Positions 1,654 to 64,000 of a stretch of 64,000 nucleotides of DNA are shown here, in pieces. The position numbers and the translations under genes were made by a program. The notes beneath the pieces are model-generated. The model searched no databases and was not told the origin of the DNA. It was given only the letters and a program-made list of their open reading frames with translations. The first letter of the stretch is position 1. Each line of letters opens with the position of its first letter. The stretch is from an uncultured Lentisphaeria bacterium (GTDB lineage Bacteria > Verrucomicrobiota > Lentisphaeria > Victivallales > Victivallaceae). The DNA lies in the NCBI GenBank assembly GCA_949298075.1, contig CASFVA010000033.1, positions 20,806 to 84,805 on the forward strand. The letters run 5' to 3'.

Positions 1654-2886
1654 TCAGTCCTTCTCCCCCGGAAACTCAACCGTCCGCAGACCGATCGCCC
1701 CCAGCGCAAACGGAACCGCCAGCAGCGCAATACCGTATTCAGACCGCCCCCACCACCAGGCCGCCAGTCCGACCAGCACCGGTCCCACGATCGTGGTGAA
1801 TTTGCCGAACAGATTGTACACGCTGAAATATTCCGCCGCCCTCCCCCCCGGAATCAGCCGGCTGTACAGAGAACGGCTCAGCGCCTGGATTCCTCCCTGG
1901 GAACTGCCGACCAGCACCGCAATCACAATAAACAGCACCAGCCGCCATCGCGGAGAATCTATCAGCGGAAAGGCACCGGCCAGTACTGCAATCGTCATGT
2001 ACACCCCGATCGCCGCCAGCACCGGGCGCCGTGCCGAAAACCTCCGGGCCGCCAGCCCGTACAGCAGTGTGCAGGGGAACGCCAGAAACTGCAGCCCCAG
2101 AATGATCACAATCAAACCCTCGTCCGACACACCGACATCCAGCGCCAGCGGAGCCGCCATCAGGTAAATGGTGCCGACACCGTCGATATAGAGAAAATAG
2201 GAAATCAGGAATCGCCGCAGATTGCGGTCCTGCCAGATGTGCTTCAGAACCCCGCCGGCCTTCTCCGCCGGGGAGCCGGTCCGGCGTCGCTCCCGAACGG
2301 CGAAAAAAAGCGGCAGCGACAATCCCGTCCACCAGAGCGCCGCAATGAGAAAGGACCACCTGATCACCGCCAGCCGGTCGGACCACACCAGACTGAGCCC
2401 CAGACAGACTATGAATGGAATCACCCCGCCCACATATCCGACCGCGTAGGAAAAACTTGACAATCCATGCCGCCCGGCGCGGGACGCCACATCGTTGAGC
2501 ATCGCGTCATAAAAACTGTTGGCCGCCATGTAGGACGCCAGACCGACGAAACTCAAAAGCAGAATGAGTCGCCAGTCTCCGGCGAACGCCAGGCCGACCG
2601 TGGCCGCCGCCCCGGTCAGAACAAATCCGCCCAGAAACCACTTTTTGCGGCGGGCCCGGTCGGCATAGGGGCCCAGCACCAGGGATATCGCTCCCGCAGC
2701 AATGCCGGCCGCGCTCGCCGCGTATCCCCAGGCACTGGTGGCCGCCGCCTCGCCGAGCGCGGCATCGGCCGCATATTTGAACAACAGCGGCGCAAACACA
2801 GTGCGCACTATCAACGCATAAGCGGCGTTGGCCGGATCATACAGCAGCCAGGCCAGCCGGGCGCGATTGAATTTCATAAGTTTCAT
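1654..2886 (-). CDS. MFS transporter
   Basis: 410 aa with about 12 hydrophobic segments and an MFS-like loop (GPYADRARRKKWF). It lies 3 nt upstream of the permease gene on the same strand. Confidence 0.7.
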   Translation of the reverse strand: MKLMKFNRARLAWLLYDPANAAYALIVRTVFAPLLFKYAADAALGEAAATSAWGYAASAAGIAAGAISLVLGPYADRARRKKWFLGGFVLTGAAATVGLAFAGDWRLILLLSFVGLASYMAANSFYDAMLNDVASRAGRHGLSSFSYAVGYVGGVIPFIVCLGLSLVWSDRLAVIRWSFLIAALWWTGLSLPLFFAVRERRRTGSPAEKAGGVLKHIWQDRNLRRFLISYFLYIDGVGTIYLMAAPLALDVGVSDEGLIVIILGLQFLAFPCTLLYGLAARRFSARRPVLAAIGVYMTIAVLAGAFPLIDSPRWRLVLFIVIAVLVGSSQGGIQALSRSLYSRLIPGGRAAEYFSVYNLFGKFTTIVGPVLVGLAAWWWGRSEYGIALLAVPFALGAIGLRTVEFPGEKD

Positions 2887-3571
2887 CCGCAGATCTCACA
2901 TGCTCCGCTCCCCGGCATCCGGCTCTGTTTGGACCGGAACGCCGACCGTTCAATATACCGCCTCCCCCTGCGGTTTTCAAGCCGGCTCCGGTTCCCGCTC
3001 CCCCCCCTGCACCCGCTTGTTAATAACTTGTTAATAAAAAGTGCCGCTTTTCGTTTTTTTTTCGTAAACCACCGCCGTCAGCCGAGATACATTTTTTGAG
3101 TTCCCCATCCGCCGTTCGTCCCGCCCGGCCGGGTGGCTGCCGGTCGCTTTTCCGCCTAAAATAGCTGTAATACACCTACTATCAAGCGGTTTGCCGGAAT
3201 GATGAAAAAATGCGTATTTTTCAGTCGGAAATCTCGTAACTTCCTGATCTGTTGCAAAGGAACTGCCGGTTGTCAATAACTTGATCCCGGCCGGTTCAAC
3301 CGTCGGAATCCCGATCATGCCGCCTCCTTGATCTATTTGCAAAAACTTCCATTCTGCGCTATTTTAAATTCAGGTCATCCGGATCAGTCCGGTCGTCGGT
3401 TTTCATCGGCCGCGGACTCCCTTTCTGAATGGTTGTTCCGATGCGTCAGCATTGGATCGGCCTCGGGGTTTTTTGTCCCCGACGGCCACGGAAAGAAATG
3501 CCGGAAACTGCGGTTGATTTTGAGGAATGAATGACGGCGGAGCTGCCTCGGCGGGTCCGACCGGATTCAGC

Positions 3572-3708
3572 CCGGAGCCGTGAACTGAAACGGCGGCCGG
3601 GGGGCTGTGAAGTTGACGTGGAACGGCAGCTGTGGAGAGCGCCGGAGCCGTGACCTGAACCGGCGGCCGGGGGCTGTGAAGTTGACGTGGAACGGCAGCA
3701 GAGGAAAG
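3572..3708. repeat. Tandem direct repeat, 2 copies of about 68 bp (ccggagccgtgaMctgaaMcggcggccgggggctgtgaagttgacgtggaacggcagc...)
   Basis: Read directly: copy 1 at about 3572-3640 and copy 2 at about 3641-3708, more than 90% identical. It sits in the long intergenic region upstream of dnaA and creates the Pro-rich spurious ORFs 3403..3813 and 3567..3806. Confidence 0.8.
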
Positions 3709-3730
3709 CCGGCTGGCTGGCAAGGCGGAG

Positions 3731-3778
3731 CCGGAATTGAAATATATATATAGTTTAAATATACAAGATAAGGATGTG
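3731..3778. other. AT-rich island (candidate DNA-unwinding element) upstream of dnaA
   Basis: aattgaaatatatatatagtttaaatatacaagataagga is an extreme AT-rich stretch in an otherwise high-GC context, about 230 nt upstream of the dnaA start codon. Confidence 0.4.
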
Positions 3779-4008
3779 CCTGACCGGTTCTCCGGTCCGT
3801 AAACACCGTGCATTTAAAATATCGCAGCCGGAAACCGGTGCTTGCGGCTGGCTACTGCCAGTTGGCCGGCGGTGGCGTCCGGCGTTGTGAAGGCGGGGCG
3901 AAGCGGTGCTTCAATCGGATCTGGTCAATCACTCCGCAGGTCGTTCCGGAACACCGGGCCCTCCGGGCCGCGGTTTCCGGAAATCAAGTTCAAGGTAACA
4001 ACAGCAAC

Positions 4009-5409
4009 ATGAGTTCGGATCAATCCAACGCGGTCGCGCTTTGGGCCGTGGCGTCCCGCCGCCTGCTGCAGCGCAATGAACTTCTGTTTCGGCAGTGGTT
4101 CTGCAATCTCATACCGTTGACCGTCACCGATCAGGTGATTCGTCTCGGCGTTCCGGACGATTTCTTCGGCACAGTCGTCAGCGAACAGTACGACGACCTC
4201 ATCCTTGATGCCCTCCGCGGAATCGACGGAGCCGACTACCGTTACGAATTTGAAAGCGGTCATCTGCCTGCGGCGGCGGTCGTTCCGCCACCGGCTCCCG
4301 CCGCCGTTCCGGCCGCTCCGGCCCCGGAAACCCAGCCGGCCTCGCCTTTCACAGTCAAATCCCGCCCCCGCTGGCAGGAGGGCGTTTTGCATGAATTCAC
4401 TTTCGAAAACTTCGTCGTAAGCGAAGCCAACCGTCACGCATTCGCCGCCGCCGGTGTGGCCGCCACCGAACCTGGTCTCTACAATCCGTTGTTCCTGCAC
4501 GGCAGCAACGGCGTCGGCAAAACCCACCTGCTCCGGGCGATTGCCCATGAAATGCGCCGGCTGCATCCTGACTGGGTGATTCGCTGCACCACCAGCGACG
4601 AATTGATCAACGGGTTCTATGAGCTGATGATGCAGAAACGCAGCCTCGCCGCGTTCCGGTCCGAAGTGTGTGACGTCGATGCGCTGCTGATTGACGACGT
4701 TCACAACCTCTCCAAGAAAAAACAGCTGCAGGACGACTTTTTCCACATTTTCAACACTCTGCACGGGCGCAACAAACAGATTGTGTTCACCAGCGACCGG
4801 CAGCCCTGCGAAATTCCCGACATTGAAGCCCGGCTCAGCACCCGGTTTGAATCGGGCATGGTCTCCGAAGTCTGCATGCCCGAATACGAAGCAAGGCTGG
4901 TGATCCTGCGCAAATGGCGCGCGGAAATGATCACGCAGACTCCGCTGGATGATCAGTTCCTGGAGTTTCTGGCCTCCAACATCACATCCAGTGTGCGGCG
5001 GCTGAAAAGCGCTTTTCTGCGTCTGGCCACCCATGCTTCGCTCAGCGGCAATGACCACCTCTCGCTCTCCGAGGCGGAGGATCTGCTTCATGTTCAAATT
5101 TCCCAGGAAGCGGCGGCGCGGGGGATTTCCCTTGAAAGCATTCAGCATGTGGTCGCCTCCCAGTTCGGTCTGACCAATGCGGATCTGCTCGGCAAAAAAC
5201 GCTCCCGCCGCTTTGCCGAACCCAGGATGATCGCCATGTTTCTGGCCCGGGAGCTGACCTCGCACTCCTCGACGGAAATCGGCGCCGCGTTCGGCCGCAA
5301 TCACGCAACCGTGCTTTACGCCGAAAAGCAGATTCCCGAGCTCTGCCGCTACAATGAGGACATCCGCAGTGCAGTTTCTCAGCTGCGCCGCCAACTCCAG
5401 CGCAAATAG
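4009..5409 (+). CDS. dnaA: Chromosomal replication initiator protein DnaA
   Basis: The N-terminus MSSDQSNAVALWAVASRRLLQ is a typical DnaA domain I. The AAA+ Walker A is GSNGVGKTHLL, Walker B is LLIDDVHNL and sensor/box VII is FTSDRQP. The C-terminal domain IV DNA-binding helix-turn-helix is RRFAEPRMIAMFLARELTSHSSTEIGAAFGRNHATVLYA. I chose ATG 4009 over the track start at 3808. Confidence 0.9.
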   Translation: MSSDQSNAVALWAVASRRLLQRNELLFRQWFCNLIPLTVTDQVIRLGVPDDFFGTVVSEQYDDLILDALRGIDGADYRYEFESGHLPAAAVVPPPAPAAVPAAPAPETQPASPFTVKSRPRWQEGVLHEFTFENFVVSEANRHAFAAAGVAATEPGLYNPLFLHGSNGVGKTHLLRAIAHEMRRLHPDWVIRCTTSDELINGFYELMMQKRSLAAFRSEVCDVDALLIDDVHNLSKKKQLQDDFFHIFNTLHGRNKQIVFTSDRQPCEIPDIEARLSTRFESGMVSEVCMPEYEARLVILRKWRAEMITQTPLDDQFLEFLASNITSSVRRLKSAFLRLATHASLSGNDHLSLSEAEDLLHVQISQEAAARGISLESIQHVVASQFGLTNADLLGKKRSRRFAEPRMIAMFLARELTSHSSTEIGAAFGRNHATVLYAEKQIPELCRYNEDIRSAVSQLRRQLQRK

Positions 5410-5771
5410 CCTCTTCGCTTCGCTCCGCGCCGGCCCGACCGGAGGGATCGCCGGTGAATTCCTCCGGCGGCCCCGAGGACTGTTTCCGCCGCCCCGGGAT
5501 CAGAAATGGCGCGGTCGTTCCGCAAGTAAATTCGCACCGGATGAAACGGCGCCGCGATGCGGCCGCCGGAATCAGCCCCGGTTCAATCCGGCAGTTTGGG
5601 ATCATCGCCATTCCGGCCATCCCCGGCAGATCTCAGAGGCTCCGGCGGCGGTCGCCATCCGCTTCAAACACCAGAATTCATCAGGTCGGAACCGGAGGCA
5701 GACCTGGCAAAAAGAAAATTGCAGAATGTAAAATATTGTGTAAAAAAAAACGGTTTTTCAGGGAGAACCCC

Positions 5772-5800
5772 TTGCCGTTTCCATCATTGCTGGGTATAAT
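5772..5800 (+). promoter_or_regulatory. Sigma70-like promoter (TTGCCG-17nt-TATAAT) for the DUF1559 pseudopilin gene
   Basis: Read directly: TTGCCG at 5772-5777, a 17-nt spacer, then TATAAT at 5795-5800. The RBS gaaaggaaagtgg precedes ATG 5910. Confidence 0.45.
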
Positions 5801-5909
5801 ATACACGTAAATGCCGAATCGGAGCAATCGCGGGGCGGCGTTTATTATTATAAACACAGGCAAAGCAGGGGTACAACCCAAAACTTCTACGAAAGGAAAG
5901 TGGTAAAAA

Positions 5910-43191: not shown

Positions 43192-44072
43192 ACCGCCGGT
43201 CCTCCGGTGTCAAAACCGCGCCGCATGGCTTCCAGCGGAGCCGGCCGGCCGGTCCACAACTCAAATGAACGCGCCCCCTGATGAATCAGCATGGCCCGCC
43301 CGCCCGCCGCCGCCAGTCCGGAGGCGGCTGCGCGTTCCAACAGCGGTGTGCGCCGGTAGATGGTGTCAAAGACCGCGCAATCGGGCCGGCAGCACTCCAG
43401 CACCGCCAGGTCGATCGGCGGCGGATCCGTGTCGCGCAATCCCAGTGACGTCGCCTGGATGATGAAATCCGCCGCCGCCGCCGCCCGCCGGAGTCCGGTT
43501 GTGTCGGCGAGCTCCAGCGCCGCAACCGCCACTCCGGGACGGAACGCGGCGATGCCGTCGGCCAGTTCCGCAGCTTTCGCCCCGGTGCGGTTGGCAATCA
43601 CAATCGATCCGGCACCGCGTCCGGCCAGGTGGAACGCCGTAGCGTGGGCCGCTCCGCCCGCGCCGAGAAACAGAAACGACGCCCCGGTCACCGGCTTGTG
43701 AAACTCCTCGGTCAGCGCCGCTTCCAGTCCGGCGCCATCGGTCGAAAATCCCCGGATCAGACCGTCGCGGATCACCAGGGTGTTGACACTGCCGCCCGGG
43801 GCCGCCTCAGGATCAATCCAATCCAGAAACGGCAGCACCCCATGTTTGTGCGGCACCGTGAGGTTGACTCCCTTCAGCCGGCGGCGGGCCAGCTCCACAA
43901 ACTCGCCGAGGTCGTCCGGAGCCACCCGGAGCCGGCCGTACGGGCGCCCGAGTCCGCACGCTTCGAACGCGGCGTTCTGCATGCCCGGTGACCGACTGTG
44001 CCCGATCGGATCGCCGATGACCAGATACTCCACACCGGCCTCCGGGCCGTCGACTTCAGACCAATTCAACAT
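43188..44072 (-). CDS. aroE: Shikimate dehydrogenase
   Basis: The shikimate-binding motifs are VIGDPIGHSRSP and NLTVPHK. The NAD(P)-binding motif is LGAGGAAHA. Confidence 0.85.
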   Translation of the reverse strand: MLNWSEVDGPEAGVEYLVIGDPIGHSRSPGMQNAAFEACGLGRPYGRLRVAPDDLGEFVELARRRLKGVNLTVPHKHGVLPFLDWIDPEAAPGGSVNTLVIRDGLIRGFSTDGAGLEAALTEEFHKPVTGASFLFLGAGGAAHATAFHLAGRGAGSIVIANRTGAKAAELADGIAAFRPGVAVAALELADTTGLRRAAAAADFIIQATSLGLRDTDPPPIDLAVLECCRPDCAVFDTIYRRTPLLERAAASGLAAAGGRAMLIHQGARSFELWTGRPAPLEAMRRGFDTGGPAV

Positions 44073-44205
44073 TTTTAACTGAATTTTAAAACTATTTTAA
44101 TTTAACTCGGTGGAATATTTCCGATTTCGGTGTTAATATACATGGACAACGCGATCGTTGCAACAGTTTATTGTAAACTTGTGTTCAAATCCCGGGGAGG
44201 AAAAC

Positions 44206-60263: not shown

Positions 60264-61919
60264 ATGAAACTTGAAGCTCTGAAAAAAAATCCGAAATTCA
60301 CCCCCCGGCGCGGGCCGGTGGTGCTGGCGATTCTGGACGGTGTCGGCTACGGCAAATACAGCGACGGCGATGCGGTTAAGCGTGCCAACATGCCCACGTT
60401 CCGCAGTCTGCTGGAGCACTGCCCCAACACCCGGCTCAAAGCGCACGGGACGGCGGTCGGAATGCCGTCCGACGCCGACATGGGCAACAGTGAGGTCGGT
60501 CACAACGCCATCGGCTGCGGCCGGGTCTTTTCGCAGGGGGCCAAGCTGGTTGAAGAAGCGGTTTCATCGAAGAAGCTTTTTGCCGGCGATGTCTGGAAAC
60601 AGCTGATTGACAACGTCAACTCCCGCAACAGCACACTGCACTTCATCGGATTGTTCTCCGATGGCAACGTTCACAGCCACATCGATCATCTCAAGGCGAT
60701 GCTGCTGGAAGCCCGGGCGGCCGGAGTCAAACGGGCCCGGATACACATTCTGCTCGACGGACGCGACGTGCCGGAAACCTCGGCCCTGGACTATGTCGGC
60801 CCCTTTGAAGCATTTCTGGCTGAACTCAACGCGGCTGGAGCCGATTACCGGATTGCCTCCGGCGGCGGCCGCATGGCGATCACCATGGACCGCTACGGAG
60901 CCAACTGGGATATGGTGCGCCGGGGATGGGAAATCCACGTTCACGGCAACGGCGAGAAATTCAAAAGCGCGACGGACGCCATTACCGCCCTGCGGGAACG
61001 CACCGGGGCGATTGACCAGGATCTGCCGCCCTTTGTGATCTCCGACGACGGAGCGACGCCGGTGGGAGCAATTGAAGACGGCGACTCGGTGATTTTCTTC
61101 AACTTCCGGGGCGACCGCTCGCTGGAAATCACCGCCGCGTTTGAGAACGACGATTTCGACCACTTCGACCGGGGACGGCGGCCGCAGGTGATGTATGCCG
61201 GAATGATGGAGTACGACGGCGATCTGCATGCGCCGCGGCTCTATCTGGTCAATCCTCCGGAAATCGACCGTACCATGGATGAATACCTCTGTGCATCCGG
61301 AGTTCGTCAGCTGGCGGTCAGTGAAACCCAGAAATACGGCCACGTCTCCTACTTTTTCAACGGCAACCGTTCAGGCAAATTCAATGACCAGTACGACGAA
61401 TACGAGGAAATCCGTTCCGACGTAGTGCCGTTTGAACAGCGTCCGTGGATGAAATGCGCGGAAATCACCGACCGGGTGGTCGCGGCCATCGGGAGCGGAG
61501 ACTTCGGCATGATCCGGCTCAACTTCCCCAACGGTGACATGGTGGGCCACACCGGTGACATCAACGCGGTGATCGTGGCGATGGAGGCGCTGGATCTCTG
61601 CCTGACCCGGATCAAGGCGGCGGTGGATGCAGCCGGAGCGGTGCTGGTCATTTCCGCCGATCACGGCAATGCTGACGACATGTACGAACACAAGAAGGAC
61701 GGTTCGCTCAAGACGGACTCCGACGGCAACCCGGCGCGTAAAACCAGCCATTCACTCAATCCGGTGCCGTGCATTGTCTACGACCCGGAAAGCCATGGTG
61801 AATATCTGCCGGAACTGCGCAGCGGCCTGGGCATCAGCTCGCTGGCGGCGACCTGCATTGAACTGCTGGGGTATCAGGCTCCGGAGGGCTATGATCCGAG
61901 CGTGCTGCAGTTCAGGTAA
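60264..61919 (+). CDS. gpmI: 2,3-bisphosphoglycerate-independent phosphoglycerate mutase (long, plant/trypanosome-type iPGM)
   Basis: 551 aa with the metal-binding and Ser-phosphorylation region LAILDGVGYG...SDADMGNSEVGHNAIG and a C-terminal SADHGNADDM. The RBS GGAGGAG precedes ATG 60264. Confidence 0.9.
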   Translation: MKLEALKKNPKFTPRRGPVVLAILDGVGYGKYSDGDAVKRANMPTFRSLLEHCPNTRLKAHGTAVGMPSDADMGNSEVGHNAIGCGRVFSQGAKLVEEAVSSKKLFAGDVWKQLIDNVNSRNSTLHFIGLFSDGNVHSHIDHLKAMLLEARAAGVKRARIHILLDGRDVPETSALDYVGPFEAFLAELNAAGADYRIASGGGRMAITMDRYGANWDMVRRGWEIHVHGNGEKFKSATDAITALRERTGAIDQDLPPFVISDDGATPVGAIEDGDSVIFFNFRGDRSLEITAAFENDDFDHFDRGRRPQVMYAGMMEYDGDLHAPRLYLVNPPEIDRTMDEYLCASGVRQLAVSETQKYGHVSYFFNGNRSGKFNDQYDEYEEIRSDVVPFEQRPWMKCAEITDRVVAAIGSGDFGMIRLNFPNGDMVGHTGDINAVIVAMEALDLCLTRIKAAVDAAGAVLVISADHGNADDMYEHKKDGSLKTDSDGNPARKTSHSLNPVPCIVYDPESHGEYLPELRSGLGISSLAATCIELLGYQAPEGYDPSVLQFR

Positions 61920-62021
61920 TTTGAGTTACGGACGCGGCGGAGTCAAAAAACCGCCGCGTTTTTTCATTTTACCGCTTGAAAAGTGCTGTTACCCGGCATA
62001 TATTAAGTAACATCATCATGG

Positions 62022-62098
62022 GCACCCGTAGCTCAGTTGGATAGAGCGTCTGCCTCCGGAGTAGAAGGTCTCGCGTTCGAGTCGCGACGGGTGTACCA
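62022..62098 (+). tRNA. tRNA-Arg (anticodon CCG)
   Basis: Folded by eye as a 77-nt cloverleaf: acceptor GCACCCG/CGGGTGT with G1-U72; D-arm GCTC-AGTTGGATA-GAGC; anticodon stem TCTGC/GTAGA with loop CTCCGGA (anticodon CCG); T-arm TCGCG-TTCGAGT-CGCGA; 3' CCA encoded. Confidence 0.85.
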
Positions 62099-62110
62099 TT
62101 TTTTATGATT

Positions 62111-62156
62111 GAAAATCAGCGAGTTGCAAAATTGTAAAACTCGCTGATTTTTTTGT
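62111..62156 (+). terminator. Hairpin + T-run downstream of tRNA-Arg
   Basis: An 11-bp stem AAATCAGCGAG/CTCGCTGATTT with a 16-nt loop, followed by TTTTTTT. The loop is larger than in a classic terminator. Confidence 0.45.
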
Positions 62157-62547
62157 CTTTGTTGCCGGTTGAAACATGGCCGATTTGCCCGCCGTTATGA
62201 CGGCTCGCCGTTCAACTTTTAAGCCGCTTCCGCAGCCCGCCGCCGAGGGCGGACGAATCTCCGCCCCCCCGCGTTCCCATGCACCAGGAACGCCCCGTCC
62301 GGGATCGGCCTGCCCGTGCAGTCGGCGGTCGAGGAATTTTACATGCCCTACGGGGCGGCAAAATTCGGCGGCAAATGCGCCCGGAGTCTGTTTGACGGGC
62401 GCGGGTCGTTTTATCTGAACGAAACCGGCCGCGGACCGGACCAGAGGATCACTCCGGCGATGCTTCGGCAGGCCGGCCGGCGGCTCCGGCAGGAGATTGA
62501 ACGCCACCGGCGTCTGAAAGCTGAAAACGTAAAAAAACAACTTGAAA

Positions 62548-62576
62548 TTGAAAAATGCGAACCTCCATGCTATATT
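62548..62576 (+). promoter_or_regulatory. Sigma70-like promoter (TTGAAA-17nt-TATATT), preceded by a second tandem TTGAAA, for the zinc-ribbon/TM2 gene
   Basis: Read directly: TTGAAA at 62548-62553, a 17-nt spacer, then TATATT at 62571-62576. The SD GGAGG lies 7 nt before ATG 62608. Confidence 0.4.
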
Positions 62577-62607
62577 GGCTTACAGCCATCAGCATGGAGG
62601 TGTTTTT

Positions 62608-63228
62608 ATGAGGATGCGTTGCCCGCACTGCGGCCAGAAGTACGAAATTGACGACGATCTCACCGGGCAGGAGTTGGAGTGTTCCGCCTGCGGAAAAACC
62701 TTCACTGCCGTGCAGTCGTCCCCCCCGGCGGCACTCGTTTCGTCGCCTGAACTCAAACCGAAGACAGCTCCCATGCCGGAGCCTAGACCGGCGTCCGCCA
62801 AACTGCCATTGCCGCCGGGTAAACGTGGTATTGTACTTCCTAAACAAAACAGAACCCGTTGTTGCCCGATGTGCGGAGAGGAAATTCTTGTATTTGCAAA
62901 AAAATGCCGCTTCTGCGGAGAATATTTTGACAATTCGGGAAAGCCGCGCAACCCGAACAACCGTGCAATCTACGTTCTCCTTGCCCTGTTCTTGGGCGGA
63001 TTTGGCGCTCACAACTTTTATGAAGGTGACAACAAAACTGCAATTGCTCATATTATTGTTACTATAATACTGTTAGCGCTGTTTATGGCGATCCCGGTTT
63101 ATATTAATTCTTGGGTAGAGGCCAGCATTGGCATCGCCGCCGGTGTTCTCGGACTGCTGAATTTTCTGTGGATTATCATCGAAATTTGTGCAGGGCGTTC
63201 AATTGTTCGATGGTTGAAATCTGAATGA
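62608..63228 (+). CDS. Double zinc-ribbon + TM2-domain membrane protein
   Basis: Two CxxC...CxxC zinc ribbons (MRCPHCGQKYEID...CSACGKTF and CCPMCGEEILVFAKKCRFCGEYF), then the TM2-domain signature AIYVLLALFLGGFGAHNFYEGDNKTAIAHIIVTI with two TM helices. The gene has markedly lower GC than the rest of the window. Confidence 0.65.
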   Translation: MRMRCPHCGQKYEIDDDLTGQELECSACGKTFTAVQSSPPAALVSSPELKPKTAPMPEPRPASAKLPLPPGKRGIVLPKQNRTRCCPMCGEEILVFAKKCRFCGEYFDNSGKPRNPNNRAIYVLLALFLGGFGAHNFYEGDNKTAIAHIIVTIILLALFMAIPVYINSWVEASIGIAAGVLGLLNFLWIIIEICAGRSIVRWLKSE

Positions 63229-63325
63229 TATTGCCGTTGCCGCCCGGAAATTTCCGGGCGTTTTTTTTGACGTGATTTCCGGCTCTGTTGACAACCTCCG
63301 GTCTGATGGACAGGAGGTTTTTTTA

Positions 63326-64000
63326 TGGGATTTGACTTGGGAACGGTCAGCGCCACCGTCGTGCTGGATGATTCCGATTACCGGCGCGGGCTGAGCGGAC
63401 TGGAGAGTGCCAGCGCCGGCACCTTCCGGCGCATTGCCGGCTATGCCGCCGGATATTTGTCAGTACGTGCATTGTCCGGATTTGTCACCGGCGCGATGGC
63501 GGAGTTCTCCAAGCTCGAAGAGGGCAACAATAAACTCAAATACACCTTTACCGAGCTCGAAAACGAGGCGGCCCGTGCTGCCCGGACCATTGCGCAGACC
63601 TTCAACGTGTCGGAGCAGACGGCCACCAACGCCATCGCCGATATCGGAGATTTGTTGACCGGACTGGGGTTTGAACAATCAGACGCCCTGCGTTTTGCCG
63701 ATCAGATCACCCGCCGCGGAATTGACGTGGCCAGTTTCAAGGGATTGGATCAGAGTGAAACCATCCGCCGCATGACGGTGGCGCTCACCGGCGAAACCGA
63801 CAGCCTGAAAATGATGGGGGTGGTGATCCGGCAGGACACCGATGAATTCCGGCAGCAGGTCGCGGCGATTCAGGCGTCAACCGGCGCCACCGAAACCATG
63901 GCCAAGGCGCAGGTGATTTTACAGCAGGTCATGCGGCAGACGAAAAACGCCGAAGGGGACTATCTGCGTCCCGATGCGCCGCGGACCTATGCACAGGAAT
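63326..64000 (+). CDS. Phage tail tape-measure-like protein, N-terminal part (runs off window end)
   Basis: An SD caGGAGGttttttt precedes ATG 63326 and the frame is open to the window end. This ORF is absent from the track because it has no stop in the window. The N-terminus MGFDLGTVSATVVLDDSDYRRGLSGLESASAGTFRRIAG resembles the conserved start of siphovirus-type tape measure proteins, followed by helical TMP-like sequence. Confidence 0.5.

Follow-up and report, generated by a model that had tools for sequence, protein, structure and literature searches.

Does the non-coding gap upstream of dnaA in this uncultured Lentisphaeria bacterium hold the replication origin of the chromosome, or does it serve the dnaA gene itself? 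A sequence-only reading of the window (i.e., the whole 64-kb stretch of DNA that was analyzed) had proposed an origin at 2887-4008, with an AT-rich unwinding element, iteron-like repeats and degenerate DnaA boxes. The gap is flanked by an MFS/ATG22-type transporter gene (-) and dnaA (+), just as that reading had described, and the mechanical ORFs within 2887-4008 gave no Pfam match. A hidden 95-aa antisense ORF (3030-3317, -), annotated by metagenome gene callers, was discarded, since the corresponding ORF in a relative shows no similarity to it. Rfam returned no match between 2500 and 6200 (E<=1), and no tRNA or tmRNA was found near the region. The gene downstream of dnaA encodes a prepilin/DUF1559 protein and is not dnaN. 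Mean G+C of the window is ~61%, slightly below the two-thirds that had been given as the context, and our literature search found nothing on the origins or DnaA boxes of Lentisphaerota. The genes around the gap, together with a promoter-like site, are as follows.

1654-2886 (-): MFS/ATG22-like transporter gene, divergent from dnaA
2980-2952 (-): promoter-like site for the MFS/ATG22-like gene, from the promoter scan
4009-5409 (+): dnaA, 466 aa, with the Pfam domains Bac_DnaA and Bac_DnaA_C

The search for DnaA-box-like sequences pointed to three sites, all of them in the upstream part of the gap.

3016-3037 (+): head-to-tail double box, CTTGTTAATAA twice; the copies score 19.4 each, the two highest PWM values of the window, and align to the pair that precedes dnaA in relatives
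3271-3279 (+): single distal box TGTCAATAA (GGTTGTCAATAACTTG in its extended form), lying 253 nt beyond the first box

The 9-mer TGTTAATAA occupies 3018-3026 and 3029-3037 (+), and the 2-nt gap between the copies gives an 11-bp period. Together with TGTCAATAA, these are the three TTGTYAATAA-like copies that had been noticed from the sequence, and they were recovered on the + strand as described. TGTYAATAA matched three times in the 64-kb window against 0.20 +/- 0.47 times in shuffles, none of the 100 shuffles reaching three, and all three matches sit upstream of dnaA and on its strand. A box PWM trained on sequences of relatives placed the three among the four best matches of the window (19.4, 19.4, and 14.5, with a site at 44131 scoring 14.9), and it found no extra weak boxes near the tandem repeat or the AT-rich island described below. 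The reverse complement of TGTTAATAA, TTATTAACA, agrees with the DnaA-box consensus TTATCCACA at 7/9 positions and with the relaxed form TTWTNCACA at 8/9, the constrained C6 being replaced by A, so that it fully matches neither. As the earlier reading had reported, a perfect TTATCCACA is absent. Sequences one mismatch away from it number five, where 5.45 would be expected, and the intergenic region contains none of them. Canonical DnaA boxes were thus rejected as a candidate for this region, and the 7/9 match TGTGGAGAG inside the tandem repeat, previously put forward as one of the best matches, is not meaningful because one-mismatch matches occur at chance level and never in the gap. The cluster therefore consists of three variant boxes within 265 nt, in a single orientation, enriched and conserved, none of them canonical. 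Judging from its sequence, the double box would be a pair of variant DnaA boxes of high affinity. By analogy, the repeated TTGTYAATAA motif, a conserved dnaA-linked element, is most likely the non-canonical DnaA box of this lineage, which agrees with the earlier suggestion that boxes here may be degenerate or non-canonical.

Comparison of the intergenic region among relatives supported the boxes and left the other proposed origin elements aside: of the features described in the gap, only the boxes are conserved. About 12 Lentisphaerota relatives share one layout upstream of dnaA, namely a double box, 243-285 nt, a single box, and then dnaA. Specifically, a double and a distal box on the same strand as dnaA were found in L001-L006, L014-L017, L142, and L143, where DnaA identity ranges from 35 to 61% and the neighboring genes are unrelated, differing in every relative. 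In eight measured sequences, 243-284 nt separate the double from the single box, and coordinates gave 264 nt for L142 and 240 nt for L143. The relatives examined carry 11-bp head-to-tail pairs or triplets upstream of dnaA. Further short elements were located between or beside the boxes.

3038-3071 (+): T-rich tract after the double box, with 48-nt windows down to 25% G+C, ending in a conserved GTAA at 3064-3067
3147-3166 (+): CTTTTCCGCCTAAAATAGCT, in alignments a degenerate counterpart of TTTTGAGCTCAAAA, the conserved palindrome-like element that relatives have between their two box sites
3237-3249 (+): conserved TAACTT..CCTGATC element, ~28 nt upstream of the distal box (TAAATGCCTGAT in L015, TAACTGGTTGAT in L016)

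The GTAA occurs 25-30 nt past the double box in seven of nine sequences, and L017 has a hairpin followed by a T-run at the position of the T-rich tract. TAACTT..CCTGATC could, from its sequence, be the -10 region of a proximal promoter of dnaA; the consensus promoter scan did not detect it.

Among 80 metagenome loci listed by the double-box search alone, ~5-6 had dnaA directly downstream on the same strand; the matches listed were mostly AT-rich chance matches and unrelated GTTAATAAC arrays, and no Lentisphaerota origin candidate was among them. One of the loci with dnaA downstream, of 26% G+C (L093), carries dnaA-dnaN with four boxes upstream and three downstream. In L061, L032, and L087, TGTTAATAA stands in arrays alternating with canonical TGTGGATAA or TGTGAATAA, the 11-bp phasing running throughout the array of L087 and a canonical box lying 12 bp from the pair in L061. 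The motif thus occurs both in phased arrays of one orientation and together with recognized boxes, as is characteristic of DnaA boxes near dnaA or oriC.

On the other side of the distal box, the gap holds the two elements on which the origin proposal had leaned, and these are enclosed by a pair of inverted-repeat arms.

3354-3372 (+): left inverted-repeat arm CTGCGCTATTTTAAATTCA, which resembles the TAAATT promoter of relatives
3572-3641 and 3642-3710 (+): tandem repeat with a G-rich unit, copy 1 of 70 nt and copy 2 of 69 nt, 64/70 identical with one 1-nt indel
3722-3789 (no strand): AT-rich island, minimum 0.229 G+C in 48-nt windows, 25% G+C at 3731-3778
3809-3827 (+): right inverted-repeat arm TGCATTTAAAATATCGCAG, which pairs with the arm at 3354-3372

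The tandem repeat is real, although its copies are longer than the 68 bp first given and extend over 3572-3710 instead of 3572-3708; TRF did not report it. Apart from its own two copies, the repeat unit has no match of >12 nt in the window, none was found in relatives, and the fold z-score is only -1.9, so that a structured or dispersed element was rejected. Three strain differences fall inside the repeat and two same-species contigs break within it; the repeat is specific to the species. Iterons are at least three direct repeats of ~17-22 bp that are bound by a Rep initiator and conserved with the replicon. The description as iteron-like does not fit two strain-variable copies of 69-70 nt that contain no box and are absent from relatives.

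The AT-rich stretch at 3731-3778 likewise exists, but it is not the extreme feature it had been taken for. The window contains 13 comparable AT islands, most apparently in gaps between predicted genes, and those at 44048-44143 (0.167 G+C) and 5699-5767 (0.208 G+C) are more extreme. The island includes an (AT)5 microsatellite (3742-3752), the (AT)n length of which varies among strains, and a weak promoter-like TTGAAA (3737-3742) followed by a 17-nt spacer and TATACA (3760-3765). The nearest box is ~300 nt from the tandem repeat and ~450 nt from the island. The roles proposed for the island, as a DUE, and for the repeat are contradicted by these distances, by the absence of both from relatives, by their variation among strains, and by the lack of an accompanying DnaA-trio array. 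The two arms are complementary at 17/19 positions, a value reached by one of 200 dinucleotide shuffles, and bound a 474-nt segment (3354-3827) holding both the repeat and the island. This segment is most likely an insertion or duplication in the dnaA leader and may supply an extra promoter; the repeat and the island are of little consequence.

The central claim, that of an origin, was examined through GC skew, and no polarity switch was observed at dnaA over 70 kb of the replicon. The skew was below zero in each of the 35 bins of 2 kb between -9.4 kb and +60.6 kb. Of the 44 genes, 14 lie on the + strand and 30 on the - strand, and every one of them has more C than G on the + strand. Gene orientation shows no divergence around dnaA: the leftward 10 kb carries mostly + strand genes, and the - strand predominates among the genes of the window (30/44). 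The sign of the skew is also unchanged at dnaA in relatives L001, L006, L142, and L143. By the skew test that the earlier reading had itself named, the origin claim is not supported, and the region 2887-4008 is probably not the chromosomal origin. A skew change at ~60.6 kb was considered as an origin and rejected, no boxes being present there. The region around ~60.6 kb contains lpxA, gpmI, a tRNA-Arg gene and a lower-GC island, and contigs of the same species end at ~62.7 kb.

It is nevertheless conceivable, if unlikely, that the region is a functional oriC or half of a bipartite oriC, in which DnaA on the three boxes would melt an adjacent AT tract, the candidates being 3038-3071, 3722-3789, or 5699-5767 downstream of dnaA. 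On the one hand, dnaA adjoins a conserved and phased box cluster, a T-rich tract lies beside the double box while relatives have an AT-rich tract upstream of theirs, and a box-like TGTTTATAA followed by TAATAA is found downstream of dnaA (5842-5856, -). The dnaA-dnaN locus of L093 is an origin-like region built with such boxes, and L017 weakly suggests that the skew changes at dnaA, which makes an ancestral dnaA-adjacent origin possible in some relatives. On the other hand, the uniform skew here and in the four relatives, the gene orientation, and the lack of conservation of the proposed DUE and tandem repeat all argue against an origin. Moreover, there are just three boxes in one orientation, no DnaA-trio array was found, and dnaN is not adjacent to dnaA in the window or in any Lentisphaerota relative examined.

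The protein that most likely reads the boxes is DnaA itself, the DNA-contact residues of which are as follows.

DnaA (E. coli numbering): R399, T423, N433, H434, A435, Y439

Positions 423, 433, and 435 are among those that contact bases (PMC5043019). Among the 120 closest homologues, 120 carry T or N at position 423, 108 carry N at 433, and 117 carry A at 435, whereas the DnaA proteins of E. coli, B. subtilis, and M. tuberculosis have P, D, and T. Co-variation with the box is imperfect, since L058 has a DHT-type DnaA yet keeps the double box, and L014 reads DHA; several of the loci compared were chosen by the motif itself. These changes (P423T/N, D433N, and T435A) lend indirect support to binding by the cognate DnaA, which would be the ligand of the boxes on the grounds of analogy and co-variation.

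A factor other than DnaA could also read the TTGTTAATAA repeats, either a regulator that recognizes the quasi-palindrome TTRTTAAYAA or an RNA element in the leader, and we consider this improbable. In its RNA version, box 2 would pair with the distal box, as the self-complementarity of the motif (including two G.U pairs) would allow, and so enclose a ~250-nt domain. RNAalifold indeed pairs columns 13-25 with 327-339, corresponding to box 2 and the distal box, with one compensatory change from G-C to C-G. The sense-strand position of nearly all boxes and the conserved spacing between sites would suit such an element, and the dense GTTAATAAC arrays unrelated to dnaA in other metagenomic DNA indicate that other proteins read similar words. 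However, the predicted pairing follows from the self-complementarity of the motif, two of eight sequences disrupt the one base pair of the helix that varies, and the covariation term is unfavorable (+1.06); the long-range helix was therefore rejected. The variants TGTTGATAA and TGTGAACAA drift towards the canonical DnaA box and not towards a perfect palindrome, the motif shares arrays with canonical TGTGGATAA, and the head-to-tail phasing of 9+2 is what DnaA arrays typically show. The alteration of DnaA contact residues in the same lineages and the negative Rfam search likewise speak against such alternatives.

We therefore return to dnaA and its own expression. With moderate confidence, we interpret 2887-4008 as the promoter and 5' leader of dnaA, furnished with autoregulatory variant DnaA boxes. 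The functional core would be the conserved module of ~265 nt at 3016-3283, consisting of the box pair, the short conserved elements, and the third box ~250 nt downstream. A lineage-specific DnaA with an altered recognition surface (T/N423, N433, A435) would bind the pair cooperatively, at a spacing of one helical turn. It would also occupy the distal box, and this may involve a loop of the conserved spacer. Binding just downstream of the dnaA promoter or promoters would throttle dnaA transcription, that is, classical autoregulation. Where the promoters lie is suggested by L017 and L001, in which a promoter-like TTGAAA-16/17-TAAATT ends 37 nt before the first box. No sigma-70-like + strand promoter passed the scan in 2887-4008, where only conserved -10-like elements are present; the TAAATT promoter that relatives have upstream of the double box is unrecognizable here because the MFS gene abuts the region.

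The same module might instead act as a site that titrates or recycles DnaA, like datA or DARS of E. coli, and so control DnaA activity. The DARS sites of E. coli are three-box clusters too, and a three-box cluster of fixed geometry conserved whatever the genomic context would be in keeping with this. We judge such a role very unlikely, since in all of ~12 lineages the module immediately precedes dnaA, in the sense orientation and after a promoter-like site, and a position this constant favors regulation of the gene in cis.

The variant boxes matter beyond this locus. Predictors that seek TTATCCACA beside dnaA would either find nothing in the phylum or label the region oriC by default. As the likely lineage-specific box, TTATTAACA gives searches for the true origin and for the DnaA regulon of Lentisphaerota genomes a motif to work with, and the position of dnaA inside a replichore supports seeking that origin elsewhere. 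The lineage also lends itself to examining, in a natural setting, how box specificity depends on residues 423, 433, and 435. More tentatively, and with rather less than even confidence, we propose that the altered DnaA surface (P423T/N, D433N, T435A) reads TTATTAACA instead of TTATCCACA, and that dnaA with its two-site leader of fixed geometry has become uncoupled from an origin located elsewhere.

Known systems offer partial parallels. In Epsilonproteobacteria, a DnaA-box variant with T at box position 5 occurs with helix-5 substitutions (PMC5043019). Here too, a deviating box position coincides with substitutions in DnaA domain IV, at the N-terminal end of helix 5, but by sequence comparison it is the normally constrained position 6 that differs (C to A), together with the usually conserved D433 (to N), T435 (to A), and P423 (to T/N). 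The 9-mer TTATTAACA has been proposed as the DnaA box of Mycoplasma hominis, M. mobile, and M. arthritidis, where the identical sequence likewise lies upstream of dnaA (PMC2751442). These are AT-rich Mollicutes with rnpA-rpmH-dnaA-dnaN synteny, in which the site was taken as oriC (PMC2751442). Unlike in Mycoplasma, dnaN is not adjacent here and the skew does not switch, and the genome has ~61% G+C, for which reason the motif stands far from chance expectation.

The basal unwinding system of oriC reportedly consists of DnaA boxes, then DnaA-trios, then an AT-rich DUE, as described by Richardson et al. in 2016. The locus resembles such a core in having a phased box pair of one orientation beside a T-rich tract and adjacent to dnaA. 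It differs in having three boxes, neither a DnaA-trio array nor a skew switch, and an AT island ~450 nt from any box. Autoregulated dnaA promoters are a further precedent: E. coli has a box between dnaAp1 and dnaAp2, and B. subtilis has box clusters upstream of dnaA. In E. coli, dnaA is moreover located away from oriC. The Lentisphaerota arrangement departs from both in its box (TTATTAACA and not TTATCCACA), in its fixed pair and single box 240-284 nt apart, and, in this genome, in a very long leader of ~740-990 nt, the repression here being putative. Like the dnaA promoters of E. coli and B. subtilis, it places DnaA-box-like 9-mers directly upstream of the gene, at or just past promoter-like sites, and these boxes stay with dnaA wherever the gene sits.

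The 1,122-nt gap between the transporter gene and dnaA gave no coding evidence by any tool. Its mechanical ORFs have no Pfam match, and the 95-aa antisense ORF that metagenome assemblies annotate shows no relation to the one in the corresponding place in a relative. Rfam and ARAGORN searches of the gap also found nothing. The features of this region are as follows.

1654-2886, - strand: MFS/ATG22-type transporter gene, left flank of the gap
3018 and 3029, + strand: head-to-tail pair of 9-mers (double box)
3271, + strand: single 9-mer (distal box)
3354-3372 and 3809-3827: arms of an inverted repeat, 17/19 matching (17/19 reached in 1/200 shuffles)
3572-3641 and 3642-3710: tandem repeat
3722-3789: AT island
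4009-5409, + strand: dnaA, 466 aa, with Bac_DnaA and Bac_DnaA_C domains

The three copies of TTGTYAATAA reported by a sequence-only reading are present where it placed them. The 64 kb hold three matches to the 9-mer TGTYAATAA where shuffling predicts 0.20, and 0 of 100 shuffles contained as many; every match is in the gap, on the dnaA strand. We also confirmed the reported lack of a perfect canonical TTATCCACA; one-mismatch matches occur at chance level (5 versus 5.45 expected), with none in the gap.

The DnaA protein places the window in Lentisphaerota (Victivallales). Its best genome matches are Victivallaceae and Victivallis MAGs (52-55% identity), and the closest non-self protein among 5.8 billion is 61% identical. 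The neighbours of dnaA differ in every relative and dnaN is never found 3' of it, yet nearly every relative examined carries a common box architecture on the dnaA strand. It opens with two, or sometimes three, TGTTAATAA-like 9-mers arranged head to tail with a 2-nt gap (11-bp period), after which come a single TGTTAATAA(C)TT, 240-284 nt further on, and, after another ~50-260 nt, dnaA; one relative (L006) has no recognisable distal box. In MAFFT alignments the window pair and single box, 253 nt apart, align with the relatives' sites, and conserved islands lie between them: GTAA ~28 nt 3' of the pair, a palindrome-like TTTTGAGCTCAAAA, and TAA(A/C)T..CTGAT ~28 nt before the distal box. Two relatives (L017 and L001) share a promoter-like site, TTGAAA-16/17-TAAATT, ending exactly 37 nt 5' of the first box. 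The window has no recognisable copy of it, because just 130 nt separate the pair from the start of the transporter gene.

Several relatives also have a short hairpin just 3' of the double box (L017 9596-9616, L015 9630-9650, L002 9690-9712), in some cases followed by a T-run, where the window has just a T-rich tract (3047-3063). Such an arrangement hints at a dnaA leader subject to attenuation or termination.

The reverse complement of the motif, TTATTAACA, matches TTATCCACA at 7/9 positions and the relaxed E. coli consensus TTWTNCACA (PMC5043019) at 8/9, deviating by C6 to A. Five observations support reading TGTTAATAA as a DnaA box. First, box variants in the relatives step toward the canonical form (TGTTGATAA, TGTGAACAA). 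Second, when metagenomes were scanned blind using nothing but the double box, ~5-6 of the 80 loci listed had dnaA immediately 3' on the same strand. An unrelated AT-rich lineage (L093 2200-3860, a metagenome contig of 26% G+C with dnaA-dnaN and an NHA-type DnaA, after residues 433-435 in E. coli numbering) has four exact copies of TGTTAATAA upstream and three downstream of dnaA, so in that lineage the same variant box apparently forms an origin-like region of the classical kind flanking dnaA. Third, at three further loci TGTTAATAA shares one array with canonical TGTGGATAA or TGTGAATAA. The mixed arrays, in which TGTTAATAA alternates with TGTGGATAA, TGTGAATAA or TGTTGATAA within the same flanks, are located as follows.

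L061 9160-9200: mixed array
L032 1117-1275: mixed array
L087 83-160: mixed array, 11-bp phasing

Fourth, the identical 9-mer, where it precedes dnaA in Mycoplasma hominis, M. mobile and M. arthritidis, has been proposed as the DnaA box (PMC2751442). Fifth, at the residues reported to make base-specific contacts (399, 423, 432-435, 438-439 in E. coli numbering; PMC5043019), the window DnaA has R/T/R-N-H-A/L-Y versus R/P/R-D-H-T/L-H in E. coli. Of its 120 closest homologues, all 120 have T or N at residue 423, 108 have N at 433 and 117 have A at 435. The apparent co-variation of box and contact residues is suggestive only, because there are few controls, the motif itself served to select some loci, and one locus (L058) has a DHT-type DnaA yet carries the double box.

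Some metagenome contigs with no relation to dnaA also hold dense arrays of GTTAATAAC/TGTTAATAA, with 4-9 exact copies and often as inverted blocks around a small ORF or unique segment. In appearance they resemble the terminal or iteron arrays of a mobile element, or eukaryotic DNA.

L044 1050-1780: dense array
L056 5390-6130: dense array
L057 1-370: dense array
L029 90-170: dense array
L023 508-553: dense array
L082: dense array

The dnaA promoters of E. coli and B. subtilis are autoregulated. By analogy with them, DnaA would bind the phased pair cooperatively, would also bind the distal box just 3' of the dnaA promoter(s), and by occupying these boxes may limit transcription of its own gene. 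The conserved ~250-nt spacing suggests that the two sites could communicate, for instance through looping. Recognition by a different ligand, or a helix between the boxes at the RNA level, seems quite unlikely. RNAalifold does predict such a helix, but it follows from the G.U self-complementarity of the motif and shows poor covariation. That the boxes form a DnaA-control site of the datA/DARS kind is very unlikely.

The best box-like site outside the dnaA region, TGTTAATAT at 44131 (PWM 14.9), lies in the most AT-rich island of the window (44048-44143, G+C down to 0.167), between divergent genes, and may be another DnaA-regulated promoter or chance. On the - strand, the previously reported TTATAAACA (5842-5856) becomes TGTTTATAA with TAATAA, two trio-like TAA units, immediately after it. 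This weak site (PWM 12.6) falls within the 5' region of a prepilin/DUF1559 gene, with a promoter-like TTGCCG-17-TATAAT (5772-5800) upstream. In the other loci scanned alongside the window, no box cluster was found downstream of dnaA.

The sequence-only reading had placed oriC in the gap and named GC skew as a check, and the skew speaks against it. After leftward extension by 9.4 kb from an independent same-species assembly (L010, 99.8% identical), every one of the 35 two-kb bins between -9.4 and +60.6 kb had negative skew. The + strand was C-rich across 14/14 + strand and 30/30 - strand genes up to 59.3 kb. The bias thus tracks the chromosome strand and not transcription direction. This puts dnaA within a replichore, on the strand that is C-rich and presumably lagging, with any skew polarity switch no closer than 13 kb and 56 kb on the two sides. 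Among relatives, skew is uniformly positive over +/-10 kb around dnaA in L001 and L142 (in L142 for every gene on either strand), positive in 10/11 bins in L006 and negative in 14/14 genes in L143; L015 and L016 are uninformative, and in L017 a change at dnaA is weakly hinted at. The gap is not a point of divergence in gene orientation, no DnaA-trio arrays were found, and a PWM trained on relatives detected no further box in 3284-4008, so the nearest box is ~450 nt away from the proposed DUE (unwinding element) and ~300 nt away from the repeat. Taken together, these results make a functional origin or half-origin in the gap unlikely, a small probability being retained because only 70 kb of the replicon is visible.

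Gene orientation flips at 59.3 kb, and past ~60.6 kb the skew, until then consistently negative, is about zero or positive. Beyond a tRNA-Arg (62022-62098) the DNA is lower in GC and holds a zinc-ribbon/TM protein and, from 63326, a possibly phage-type ORF. The stretch 60600-64000, probably an integrated island or prophage, contains no DnaA-box-like sites; same-species metagenome contigs end at ~62.7 kb.

The reported AT-rich stretch is real (3731-3778, 25% G+C) and ordinary: the window has 13 islands of <=30% G+C (48-nt windows), several of them more extreme and most apparently placed in gaps between predicted genes. The tandem repeat also exists, as just two copies of 70 and 69 nt (64/70 identical) with an unremarkable fold (z = -1.9). 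Elsewhere in the window its unit has only matches of <=12 nt, and it matches nothing in any relative. The distal box lies 729 nt from the ATG, versus ~50-260 nt in relatives, and deleting the 474-nt segment bounded by the inverted-repeat arms, which holds both repeat and island, would bring back a spacing like that of the relatives. Both arms are similar to the TAAATT promoter of the relatives. A MITE-like insertion or a promoter duplication may account for the segment, the former only a suggestion since neither a target-site duplication nor a second copy in the window was found. It is unstable within the species: of 11 differences from L010 over 6.45 kb, six fall in the gap, of which three are inside the repeat (two homogenise copy 2 to copy 1) and another changes the length of the (AT)n run. 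In two other assemblies the sequence breaks off within the repeat. Such strain variability and assembly breaks fit weakly constrained DNA, and not the iterons and DUE that had been proposed.

A relative (L016 9850-9930) has two copies of a G-rich direct repeat, GTCCGGGTGACGAACGCGGGGCAGG, in its dnaA leader; its sequence is unrelated to the window's repeat, so G-rich duplications may recur in these leaders.

We found nothing on Lentisphaerota origins or DnaA boxes in the searchable literature. What is new is the lineage, the strict two-site box geometry, the accompanying DnaA substitutions (D433N, T435A, P423T/N) and the position of dnaA at a distance from any skew switch, which are useful for origin annotation in Lentisphaerota and as a test case of box specificity. 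Clusters of DnaA boxes preceding dnaA are themselves a known kind of element, in Mollicutes TTATTAACA is already a putative DnaA box, and a specialist would not be surprised by the finding.
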